Source of the DNA: Eledone cirrhosa
Taxonomy: Eukaryota
Direction of reading: 5' to 3'
Assembly: GCA_964016885.1 (NCBI GenBank)
Contig: OZ024750.1
Coordinates: forward strand, 10,416,001-10,480,000
Length of the DNA: 64,000 bases
How positions within the stretch are numbered: the stretch's first letter is position 1; each line of letters begins with the position of its first letter. The notes below the pieces were generated by a model. The model saw nothing but the letters and a program-made list of their open reading frames with translations, made no database searches and was not told the origin of the DNA. This document shows, one piece after another, positions 9,653 to 54,897 of the stretch. A program made the translations under genes and the position numbers.

Positions 9653-9795
9653 TGATGATTTCATACGAATGAAACAGTTCTAGTCCCGTAAAAGTAATTT
9701 CTTTATATATATAATCAAGAATCCTATACTTTATAAATGTATTGAGTACCTTTTTTAACTGTGGTAACCCCCTCTCTCAGACACAACTCGGGAGC
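9653..9795 (+). mobile_element. Family A HHR element, 5'-truncated at the catalytic box
   Basis: tgatga tttc(atac)gaat gaaacag ttctagtc ccgta, then tgtattgagtacc..actgtggtaacc. Confidence 0.75.
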
Positions 9796-12700
9796 CAAAC
9801 ACACACACATATATATACACATATCTGTGTGTGTCTGTGTATATATGTGTGTATGTCTGTGTGTATGTCTATGTGTGCGTGTGTATGTGTGTGCATGTAT
9901 GTGCGCATGTATGTATGTGTGCGTATGTGTGTCTGTCTGCGTGTGTATGTGTGTCTGTGTGTAGGCGTGTACGTGTGTATGTGTGTACGTATGTGTGTAC
10001 GTGTGTACGTCTGTGTGTGTGTGTGTGTGTGTGTGTGTGTGTGTGTGTGTGTATGTGCGCATGTCCATGCTTACGCGCCCAGTTGCATGTCATCTTCAGC
10101 AGTGCACCATCCATATATCATTCAGTTTAAATATTGATATCGTGCAGTAAATAGAATATTTCTCGCAGACAGACACACGCGAACGGCTTTCTACAACACA
10201 CACACACACACACACACACACATACATACACACACACTGCTTTGCCACACTTGTATGTTCACTAGTATTCACACACATACACACCTAGATATCTTGAGTG
10301 TGTGTTCTTCATTTAGATGTTGTCTCTCATTCATTCTCTCTCTCTCTCTCTCTCTCTCTCTCTCTCACACACACACATATATGTATATATATATATATAT
10401 ATACATACATATATATATATATACACACGTACATACATATATTTACATACATACATACATACATACATACATACATATATGGTGGCTGCCAACTCGTTTT
10501 CGAGTACGGCCACTACTTTATATCCATGTAGGAGAACCCCTACCGATGCGCTGAACAAGTGTGACTTTTTAGTCCAGCCAGCGACTTGAAAACTCTGGTA
10601 CAAAGACTATACTTGTGACAATTACTGACACATACTTCTGGGCCCATGGTACCATGTGATGACAAGTGCAGAGAGATCTCCAGATATAAAGCAATGCCTG
10701 TGCCGTGAAGCTTTTATAGTGAGCAAAGGCATTGCACAAAGCCAGTCCCACTCTCTTAACATACATACATACATACATACATATATACATACATATATAT
10801 ACATAAATATATACATGATGATGGCTGCCCCCTCGTTATCGAGTATGGCCATTGCACGATATACCATTATCAATAATTATTAACTAATTCTATCGTGCAA
10901 TGCCTGTGCGTGAAGATATTTTTTAAAGTGAGGAAAGGCTGTGCACTGAGCCAATCCCACTCTCTGAGCGACAGTAGCTATAACCCGAAAAGAAGAAAAG
11001 ATCAACATCATCAGTAACTACTGAGCCGCAGGTTTTATATATACACACATATATATATACATACATACATATATATATACATATATACATACACATATAT
11101 ATATATATATATATATATATATACATACATATATACATACATACATACATACATACACATACATATATACATACATACATACATACATACATACATACAT
11201 ACACACATATATATATATATATACACATACACATATATATATATATATACATATACATATATATACATATATCCATAGATACATACACATACATATATAT
11301 ATATATATACATACACATACACACATATATATATATATATATACATACACATACATATATATATACATACACATACACACACATATATATATATATACAT
11401 ACACATACATATATATATATATATATATATATATATATATATATATATATATATATATATACATACATACACATACATATATACATATATATACATACAT
11501 ATATATATATACATACACATACATATATTTATATATGTATATATATACATATATATATATATATATATACATATTTGCATACAGACACACGTCCCATAAC
11601 CTTGCCAATTTACATACATAGATAGATAGGCATGTATAACGTGTATAAATGTGTTTATAGTGGCGCGCGCGCGTGTGCGTGTGTGTGTGTGTGTGTGTGT
11701 GTGTGTGTGTGTGTGTGTGTGTAGTAGTAGCAGCTTGTGTGTGAAATTTATGCATATGCCATTATATATATATAGCAGAATGCATGATCTATAACAGACA
11801 CACACATATGTGCATGTGTGTGTGTGTGTGTGTGTGTGTGTGTGTGTGTGTGTGCGTGCGTATGTATGTGCATGTGTGAGTATATCTGCTATGTGTGTGT
11901 GTGTGTGTGTGTGAGAGAGAGTCCGCCTCTACAAATCTCCGCCTTTGTGTAAATAATTCAGTGTGTTGATTAGGATTATCAATATATGTATGACTATATA
12001 ATCTTACTATATATATATATATATATGTGTGTGTGTGTGTGTGTGTTCGAGGGTATATATGTACGTATTTATATGTGTGTGTGAGACAGAGAACTAGAGA
12101 GAGAGAGTGATAGAGAGAGAGAGAGAGGGTGATAGAGAGGGGGAGAGCTAGAGAGAGAGAGAGAGAGAGAGAGAGAGCTGGCAGTGATTGTATATAGGGT
12201 ATGATTATACTGTTCCATGTTTTGTAAGCATGGACGTGGTTTTGTTGAGTTTAAGTGTAGACTAATATATCACTGTTATAATATATATATATATATATAT
12301 ATATATATATATATATATATATATATATATATATATTATAACAGTGATATATTATATATATATATCTATATTATATATATATATATACTGACTGATGAGC
12401 CGAGAAGATATTCAAATGTTGGCAAGTTAGAGAAGATAAATGATAAATCGCTGACTGCTCGTGTGTTGATATCACACTCATGCTGCCGTGATTTATATCA
12501 TATCATTAAGTTATGCCGTATCTGATATATTCTGACAGTGCAGGATATACAACTCCTACAACAAGAACTTTCTTTGTTCTCTCTCTATTATATATATATA
12601 TGTTCATATATATATATATATATAGAACTTTCTTTGTTCTCCTCTATTATATATATATATTTATATATTCATATTCATATATATATATATATATATATAT

Positions 12701-13744
12701 ATATAGAAAGGATGAATATAAAATGAAAGTGCTTTTGTTAAAAAAGGAATTTATTAGGTATTGACATATGTTTCTGTAACAGACCGAATACCTACGTATC
12801 GCTGCTTGCGTAATCATATAATGTTAGCAAGTATTCGATAGCAAATGTATAATCAGTTGTCACTTCTTCAGAGATTTGGGATAAACTGGATAAAATCAGA
12901 AAAATTGAAGTATTTATATTAGTAAAAGAGGAAGGAACAGAGGGGATAGTATATGACAGATGGTAAAATAATTTACTGCTAAACAAGTATATAATGGGTT
13001 TTTAATGAGAATACCATGAGTAAATCTAAATAAGAATTTTGGGAGTGCCAATTTTAATCTCTACTTGACCAACTGGACAGTGGACAGGGCTGGTCATTTG
13101 GTGCAGTAGTATTAATTATAAAGTGTCAATTGGGGAAGGGGGAGATTTCGATTGCTACTAAATAACATCAATGCTAGTAGTCAGCTGGTATATGCATTAG
13201 GGAATTGAATCAAGAAATCAGAAATCTCATTTTATCTATAGCAGTTTGTATTAAAAGGTAAATAATAGAAGAGTTGATAGAATTAAGACTAATAAAGAAT
13301 GTTCATATCTATTTTGACACGTGTGTGTATGTGTGTGTGAAAATGAACCGAGAGAGGACAAGACAACGAACGAAAACAAGGCAATACGAAAACAATTTTT
13401 GTAAGGGGAATTTTCAAAAAACTATTTTTTGAAAATAAAATACAAACGAAAGAAGATACAGAACTCCAGATTCATCGGCCGTTGAGGTAGACTTTAGCAA
13501 GAGTCAACCCCCTACCAACGGTACTGCTGGTTTACCCGGGGTCACAACGTCAGGCACAAGCCAAAACGTTGTCCAGTGGAGTAAGAGACGAGACCAAACA
13601 GTAACTTATAACCACTAAACTATGACAAATACACACACACACGCACACACACATACATATATATATATACATATATATATATATATATATATATATATAT
13701 ATATATATATATATATATATATATATATATATATATATATATAT

Positions 13745-13903
13745 AACAAAGAAAGTGTGGTATGGAACCAGGTGGACCATAACGCACCAGAGTACTCGAT
13801 TCTTAGGGTAGTAGAATGGGTAATAGGAAAAGAATCAGGACCCCGAGGGCTGAGCTCCGGCCGTTTCGACAGCTCTGCCGTCGGGGTCCTGACTCTTTTC
13901 CTA
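13745..13903 (-). mobile_element. Family B fold-back element
   Basis: Reverse tail plus inverted repeat aggaaaaga.tcaggacccc..ggggtcctgactcttttcct; junction at agct. Confidence 0.8.
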
Positions 13904-54448: not shown

Positions 54449-54570
54449 CAGGAGAACATGATATGAAGGCTAAAAAACACGTGTGGATAGTGCAGTTTTA
54501 AATCAACATATGTTGATTTAAAACTGCACTATCCACAAGTGTTTTTTAGCCTTCATATCATGTTCTCCTG

Positions 54571-54637
54571 TTTTATCTGATGAAAACACAAATATTATTG
54601 CTTGATGATGTTTGTTTTTGAAATGCGCATAATAAAA
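54571..54637 (+). ncRNA. Minimal type I hammerhead ribozyme, family D
   Basis: uuuuau-CUGAUGA-[long stem II acaaauauuauu/gaugauguuugu]-GAA-AU(GCGC)AU-A-auaaaa. Palindromic stem-loop III AUGCGCAU, AUA triplet. Confidence 0.8.
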
Positions 54638-54773
54638 TATATGGAACTCCTTTAACCATCTTTTGATCTTATATTATATATATATATATATATATATATA
54701 TATATATATACACATATATATATATAAAAACACAACCAGAAGGTATAAATATTACCGTATTACTTGGACAATC

Positions 54774-54897
54774 GGCTTCCTGATGATTTAAACAGTTCTA
54801 GTCCTGTAGAAGCCATTTCTATATTAAATATTTATACTCTGCTATGTATTGAGTACCTTACTTACTGTGGTTACCCTCGATTGAACCCGGGATAAAC
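54774..54897 (+). mobile_element. Family A HHR element; stem II and G12 deleted
   Basis: ggcttc-CTGATGA-ttt-aaacag ttctagtc ctgt-a-gaagcc, then the family tail ...gctatgtattgagtaccttacttactgtggttacc..gattgaacccgggataaac. Confidence 0.8.

Follow-up and report, generated by a model that had tools for sequence, protein, structure and literature searches.

We analyzed a 64,000-nt stretch of the Eledone cirrhosa genome (GenBank assembly GCA_964016885.1, contig OZ024750.1, positions 10,416,001–10,480,000, forward strand), hereafter the window, which contains five short dispersed repeats related to a type I hammerhead ribozyme and here called family A. Our reading, to which we assign a probability of roughly 0.9, is that these five repeats are the 5′-truncated 3′ ends of an autonomous Penelope-like retrotransposon (PLE), most likely of the Hydra clade and likely active, whose type I hammerhead is predicted to cut after GUA.

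Copies of family A in the window

The copies and their parts have the following window coordinates.

27330..27480 (−): young-subfamily stub comprising the 3′ untranslated region (UTR) end, hammerhead and "tail", stopping at (TA)n; 99% identity to the full-length element of locus L035
27413..27463 (−): complete type I hammerhead by sequence, pattern search and folding; core CUGAUGA...GAA with AGAUUC/GAAUCU as stem I
27330..27397 (−): the tail, ~+22 to +89 from the cut site; in partial tandems this sequence serves as 5′ UTR to the unit that follows
51900..52108 (+): older-subfamily stub, ~150 nt of 3′ UTR plus hammerhead, with a short tail-less end into (TA)n; 75% identity over 244 nt
52049..52100 (+): complete hammerhead core, bulged stem I (GGCAUUC/GGAGCC), loop II UCCC
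54744..54895 (+): tailed stub of the older subfamily
9653..9793 (+): degenerate, old stub (73% identity) that retains the tail and has (TA)n upstream
31743..31790 (−): one arm of a fold-back stub, inverted and with the short end; it has the 3′ half of the hammerhead only and no CUGAUGA
31779..31854 (+): the other arm of that stub (31743–31854), in direct orientation and with the tail

Homology among all five loci was confirmed with blastn and nhmmer. The original prediction had them share CUGAUGA/GAA-ACAG..CUGU-A in whole or in part, but the complete type I core was present only in the copies at 27413–27463 (−) and 52049–52100 (+), and the fold-back stub lacked CUGAUGA. These two of the five copies had CUGANGA, GAA, A15.1-U16.1, an NUH triplet and an open stem I; the other three were broken. 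The copy at 54774–54814 (+) has a 10-nt deletion that removes stem II and G12, so that no working hammerhead is possible there. At 9653 (+), truncation inside the core leaves neither C3 nor stem I; stem III of this copy contains an A-C mismatch, and loop II is AUAC. The loop II variants described earlier (uaau, uccc, auac) were as stated. The full pattern CTGANGA-N8-38-GAAACAG occurred twice in the window and in none of 100 shuffles.

Read on the minus strand, the hammerhead at 27463–27413 is AGAUUC / CUGAUGA / U-UUC-UAAU-GAA-U / GAA / ACAG-UUCUAGUC-CUGU / A / GAAUCU. It has a 3-bp stem II (UUC/GAA) over a U-U and a 4-bp stem III (ACAG/CUGU) with an 8-nt loop containing CUAG. The predicted cut falls after GUA, between 27419 and 27418.

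Genome-wide distribution and the parent element

In the 3.0 Gb genome, a 35-place core pattern with loop II left free had 19,114 exact matches and its reversed control had 0. The count rose only to 25,876 once stem II and the 5′ strand of stem III were also freed, and these parts are therefore nearly invariant. An 18-nt tail motif had 18,962 matches. The loci examined from the core, freed-core and tail matches were the first on contig C1 and not a random sample. At two of the first 30, the sequence beyond the tail enters a reverse transcriptase (RT) open reading frame (ORF). Locus L035 holds a complete unit in the order (TA)n, hammerhead, leader, intact 713-aa ORF, TA/TG tract, ~500 nt of unique 3′ UTR, hammerhead and (TA)n. 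The second hammerhead lies 5,966 bp after the first in direct orientation, making a partial tandem, and family A units range from 4.8 to 6.2 kb.

The 713-aa protein (P0001) has an RT with YRDDG followed by a C-terminal GIY-YIG domain (IVY...YIG; weak Pfam match, E 0.012), and 1404 homologs were found at E ≤ 1e-20. A protein search of the genome gave at least 63 scored matches (94,876 candidates). By hand count, and as lower bounds, at least 37 of these were full-length and at least 30 of the full-length ORFs had no internal stop. Of 30 fetched ORF loci, 22 had the hammerhead at −174/−175 relative to the ATG, and the others, among those listed, were 5′-truncated or mutated. Downstream, 16 of the 19 loci with a located stop codon (20 fetched) carried a hammerhead, at 2.5–3.9 kb from the stop in 15 of the 16. 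The earlier suggestion of a Penelope-like pseudo-long terminal repeat (pLTR) with a type I hammerhead was thus borne out by a motif 174–175 nt upstream of an RT-GIY-YIG ORF and repeated at the 3′ end, and the search it proposed for full-length copies tied to such ORFs succeeded, e.g., at L035. Pseudo-LTRs from partial tandems, an inverted 5′-truncated copy and a one-sided tail were all found in family A.

Pairwise differences among 23 frame-intact ORFs were 0.05–2.6%. From the mean of 1.3% and the minimum of 0.05% we infer recent activity, and the sequences suggest a young PLE that is likely still active.

At L035:5270–5380 (−), the GAGTACC tail motif occurs twice directly past the stop codon, ahead of the microsatellite. 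An older 3′ end may have left this doubled motif behind, in which case read-through would have added the microsatellite and the present end.

Clade assignment

For this section and those that follow we drew on parts of PMC8557442, PMC4209133, PMC7229834, bioRxiv 10.64898/2026.07.22.740005 and the supplement of PMC13282606. The consulted part of Craig et al. 2021 (PMC8557442) defines the Hydra clade by a C-terminal GIY-YIG, RWK, DKT, a CxCX5C linker and no CCHH, and further by CxxC and CxH around conserved E and N, (TA)n targets and canonical hammerheads. P0001 and its homologs contain RIRWRAFF (RWR; homologs have RWK or RWR) and SSDKTKN. The P0001 linker is CNCLNKEAC, and CDLC..E...N..E.CPNCMH supplies CxxC and CxH around E and N. 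No CCHH and no conserved CxxC between the GIY and YIG motifs were found in P0001 and its homologs. Insertion into (TA)n and a hammerhead, both Hydra traits, also occur in family A. By these motifs, family A most likely belongs to the Hydra clade.

Other assignments were rejected on ORF layout and motifs: Naiad, which has an N-terminal endonuclease; Neptune, Nematis and Poseidon, which are of the CCHH type; and retrozyme identity.

Hammerhead structure and selection

Stem I was compared in the 78 of 169 copies with an authentic 5′ flank. There were mainly three haplotypes, AGAUUC/GAAUCU (43), GGCUUY/GAAGCC (11) and AGCUUC/GAAGCU (4), among which two of the six pairs changed on both sides and one showed a wobble switch. 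The stem I swap claimed earlier therefore occurs in intact copies elsewhere, although its ggcuuc/gaagcc example came from the defective copy at 54774. We aligned 33 of the 35 distinct 51-mers, leaving out one with an indel and the bulged window copy. Stems II and III showed no compensatory change in these 33 rows. Paired cells stood at 92.5% vs 88.5% when shuffled, and 24 stem I cells changed on both sides vs 10.1 when shuffled (0/500 shuffles as high), both being measures that kinship among the sequences inflates. The paired changes are real and amount to about two evolutionary events in stem I; the pattern earlier read as that of a selected RNA structure holds to that extent.

The contrast between subfamilies is stronger evidence. 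The core and stems II and III were 99% identical between the young and older subfamilies (12 loci; 35/35 in 8), compared with 6% identity in loop II and 56% in the upstream 100 nt. Their ORFs differed by 16%, 9% and 42% at codon positions 1–3. On this sequence comparison the hammerhead-shaped motif is under selection, for which the subfamily contrast speaks more strongly than covariation.

Two copies cofolded into a dimeric hammerhead via ACAG/CUGU and the CUAG palindrome (−21.2 kcal/mol). An alternative hairpin, GUUCUA/UAGAAU, that would hide the cut site had a pair probability of 0.21 in the young subfamily and 0.01–0.03 in the others and was rejected as a conserved switch.

Insertion ends and proposed mechanism

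In a sample of 125 copies enriched for ORF loci, 56 had the short end, 47 had a tail and 22 continued into the ORF. The 3′ ends clustered at two positions, +21 and +89 nt from the predicted cut, with 15 copies in each mode, and copies adjoined (TA)n. The 34 head-to-head pairs, to which two loci supplied two rows each, comprised 29 short+tail, 2 short+ORF, 2 short+short and 1 ORF+tail, a pattern that fits the inverted copy and one-sided tail described for PLEs. As for 5′ ends at the cut site, ~6 of ~27 distinct loci (hand count from the first 100 of 652 redundant matches) began ≤2 nt upstream, which can be explained by TA microhomology and a pattern bias toward short gaps.

Copies hold the whole hammerhead and extend past it, so insertion ends are not set by cleavage; with ends 21 or 89 nt beyond the predicted cut site, they must have been made from RNA that was uncut at that point. 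The "self-cleaving ends" of the original prediction are to be amended accordingly.

A mechanism can be proposed by analogy with PAc, a Poseidon-clade PLE of Anolis carolinensis (Frangieh et al. 2024, PMC11167929). The PAc tail is bounded by two internal RT start sites, and unprocessed RNA is the main template; the PAc hammerhead cuts only with protein, and hammerhead mutants left insertion in vitro unaffected. The PLE hammerheads assayed by Cervera and de la Peña were, in the part of PMC4209133 consulted, weak and better as dimers, as was an axolotl hammerhead with U-U at the stem II base (PMC7229834, in part). In family A, a transcript across a tandem junction would be translated, and the GIY-YIG domain would nick (TA)n. 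RT would then start internally at +21 or +89 on RNA with an uncut hammerhead and would mostly stop early, leaving short stubs and inverted second arms. The hammerhead would be weak alone and would cut as a dimer or with protein help, so that cleavage would serve to process multimeric or read-through transcripts and not to set the insertion end. Most genomic stubs would be inert and decaying.

The at least 30 stop-free full-length ORFs and the two sharp 3′ ends offer a ready substrate for an internal-initiation test in the Hydra clade, and the same substrate suits asking what the hammerhead is for. For annotation, an apparent non-coding RNA family becomes debris of a known retrotransposon clade, and the window copies are ordinary.

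Microsatellite 3′ UTR

The 3′ UTR of family A is 2.5–3.9 kb long and mostly TA/TG microsatellite (2–3 kb). TA/AT/TG/GT steps made up 86–94% of the tract between stop and hammerhead in 14 of 16 loci. Rare 12-mer landmarks of the L035 tract recurred in 19/19 loci (2–10 of 32 per locus), mostly in order, and in 0 of 12 control tract-strands from the window, the controls being shorter (0.9–3.9 kb vs 4 kb). Their recurrence in all 19 loci indicates that the microsatellite is inherited with the element. This inherited 2–3 kb TA/TG 3′ UTR is what is new in family A; a weak literature search found no precedent for a microsatellite 3′ UTR traveling with such an element. It provides a concrete route for a retrotransposon to make its own (TA)n targets.

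We put forward only tentatively, as a possible but rather doubtful whole, a picture that combines these features. An active Hydra-clade element with a 2–3 kb TA/TG 3′ UTR would insert into (TA)n, each long insertion sowing targets for itself and for sister families; the hammerhead, whose loop III is an 8-nt palindrome, would cleave only when dimerized across tandem units; and +21 and +89 would be two RT start sites. Such a self-seeding loop, if it exists, would go some way to explaining why the genome is so extremely rich in microsatellites.

A third PLE family lies directly upstream of the microsatellite part of the family A 3′ UTR at L025:2–885 and L015:447–680. Its GIY-YIG is of the CCHH type (Pfam E 3e-5), and it carries a hammerhead-like motif of its own with CUGAAGA and a GUCAC/GUGAC stem. 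These are probably nested insertions.

Weighing of alternatives

Several observations weigh against our reading of family A as an autonomous, likely active Hydra-clade PLE with a cutting hammerhead. The window contained no ORF sequence of family A. The Hydra placement is by motifs, and the unit is roughly double the length given for Hydra elements ("generally <3 kb"), a trait that family A does not share but that is descriptive and not diagnostic of the clade. The insertion mechanism is borrowed from a Poseidon-clade element. Regarding the hammerhead, the search pattern imposed 16 of the 35 "conserved" positions, the other 19 being free, and covarying pairs numbered only two, equaled by 351 of 500 shuffles. 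Single-strand folding energy was no better than that of shuffles (z = 0.44). In the young-subfamily monomer, the hammerhead fold reached −5.3 kcal/mol vs a minimum of −5.6, with mean pair probabilities of 0.69, 0.17 and 0.24 for stems I–III. Rfam returned no hammerhead on a 121-nt stretch at E up to 10 and none among 150 of the 415 window matches listed, where microsatellite and hairpin microRNA noise appeared; Rfam holds curated shapes only, and a missing match does not exclude a hammerhead variant. The loop III palindrome was unexceptional, as 105 of 840 permutations and 1147 of 4000 random loops paired as well. Because shuffled loops so often do, the dimer palindrome is a lead only.

The alternative that survives best accepts a Hydra-type PLE but has a hammerhead that no longer cuts, its sequence kept as a protein-binding or folding signal for RT or carried as a passenger. 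The weak predicted fold, insertions that retain the motif in full and terminate beyond the cut, and the indifference of PAc insertion in vitro to hammerhead mutants (PMC11167929) all suit it. Yet subfamilies with a 42% difference at third codon positions have all core nucleotides and the GUA triplet in common, loop II varies freely while stem I changes in pairs, and the axolotl hammerhead, with the same U-U at its stem II base, still cuts weakly alone and better as a dimer (PMC7229834, in part). We consider loss of cutting unlikely.

The original prediction also allowed for non-autonomous retrozyme-like elements, in which the short copies would be a family spread as small, possibly circular hammerhead RNAs using a PLE enzyme in trans. 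Stubs do far outnumber ORFs (19,114 core matches vs at least 63 scored ORF matches), and animal retrozymes are proposed to be PLE pLTR derivatives in the part of bioRxiv 10.64898/2026.07.22.740005 consulted. However, retrozymes are described as tandem monomers of ~150–450 bp (PMC7229834, in part) and the family A unit is 4.8–6.2 kb. Copies have variable 5′ ends that extend into the PLE 3′ UTR by up to kilobases, the sequence past the tail is the leader of an ORF that family A itself possesses, and no short tandem array was seen in the loci read. We therefore abandon this part of the prediction as very improbable. An AT-rich motif without Rfam support might be put down to chance resemblance within AT-rich DNA or to an RNA gene family selected by the host, but chance is excluded by the 0 matches in 100 window shuffles and 0 in the reversed genome control, and the fixed position beside the RT ORF and the three broken copies of five leave either version with next to no probability.

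A second stub family and a shared tail motif

The window contains a second family (B) of (TA)n fold-back stubs, at 9366–9559, 13746–13901, 34090–34280, 43561–43694, 48350–48391 and 63780–63942. It also occurs at loci L157–L181 and had 27,655 exact genome matches. The window copies have the 3′ half of a hammerhead only. Longer copies have the core UUGA(G/A/U)AA, a long stem II and a palindromic loop III, with 9 core matches in 25 loci; this core is a U3-A8 variant of C3-G8, as described for Schistosoma PLEs. ORF fragments at L157 and L158 are ~50% identical to P0001.

The tails of families A and B share GTATTGAGTAC, found in the window at 27370–27392 (−) and 9490–9514 and also at L013, L171 and L182. 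It lies in a small hairpin with a 3′-side UU bulge, and a near-identical motif ends the published coral element Hydra-2_Amil. This hairpin is a candidate RT or protein recognition signal.

Other features of the window

2517–3080 (−): intronless 187-aa EF-hand ORF (Pfam EF-hand_7, E 7e-11), presumably resembling calcineurin B homologous protein and possibly a retrogene
4253–4406, 18288–18585, 45106–45321, 50024–50198, 51000–51186, 57033–57143: copies of a repeat family that we take to be a tRNA-like short interspersed element family
8451–8884; 15748–15864; 21994–22516; 54350–54669 and 63626–63731: further fold-back palindromes
16964–17955: minisatellite with 60–68 bp units and inverted homology at 26191–26275
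57176–57640 (+): 155-aa fragment with no Pfam match, which we assume resembles the restriction-like endonuclease end of a non-LTR retrotransposon

The palindrome at 54350–54669 stops at (TA)n and contains CTGATGA; it may be another PLE stub family.

Comparison with known systems

The original prediction held that the family may be undescribed. We found no match to family A in the literature searched, including the consulted parts of the supplements of PMC8557442 and PMC13282606, and the former did not contain its motifs in the part covered; the clade and an octopus member are, however, published (PMC8557442). Penelope-like elements make up 6.83% of the O. vulgaris genome in 190 families, according to the part of the PMC13282606 supplement consulted, and family A may be among these 190 Penelope-like consensus sequences or already listed in Repbase or Dfam.

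The closest comparison is with the Hydra clade, including Hydra-1_Obim of Octopus bimaculoides, as far as the consulted part of PMC8557442 extends. Shared features are a single ORF with RT then GIY-YIG, (TA)n targets, and type I hammerheads with U-U at the stem II base, some of which have an acag/ctgt stem III and GUA. Hammerheads of several Hydra families are listed there with a ctgatgat...tgaa core and an acag...ctgt-a stem (File S2). Hydra-1_Obim differs from family A in its listed hammerhead and its protein N-terminus, and by eye is a clearly different protein. Loop III has 8 nt in family A vs 0–3 nt in the listed Hydra hammerheads, and the 4.8–6.2 kb unit, owing to the microsatellite 3′ UTR, contrasts with Hydra elements of generally <3 kb.

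The minimal PLE hammerheads of Cervera and de la Peña 2014 (PMC4209133, in part) resemble that of family A in being type I, in their pLTR setting, the extra nucleotide after A9, the palindromic loop III, the many solitary or opposite-strand copies and the low expected monomer activity. In the minimal motif stem II is long and stem III nearly absent, whereas family A has a 3-bp stem II without G10.1-C11.1 and a full 4-bp stem III with an 8-nt loop. Metazoan non-LTR retrozymes (PMC7229834; bioRxiv 10.64898/2026.07.22.740005; both in part) share the type I hammerhead, high copy number and a PLE link, but are non-coding short tandem repeats (PMC7229834), in contrast to the dispersed, 5′-truncated copies of family A that are contiguous with their own ORF.

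PAc (PMC11167929) and family A have in common partial tandems, a hammerhead near the pLTR-ORF junction, two discrete 3′ ends bounding a tail, AT-rich targets and copies of uncut RNA. The PAc hammerhead overlaps the start of the ORF, within which its RT initiates, whereas both ends of family A lie upstream of the ATG. The tail is ~68 nt in family A vs 30–40 in PAc, and the two elements belong to different clades.

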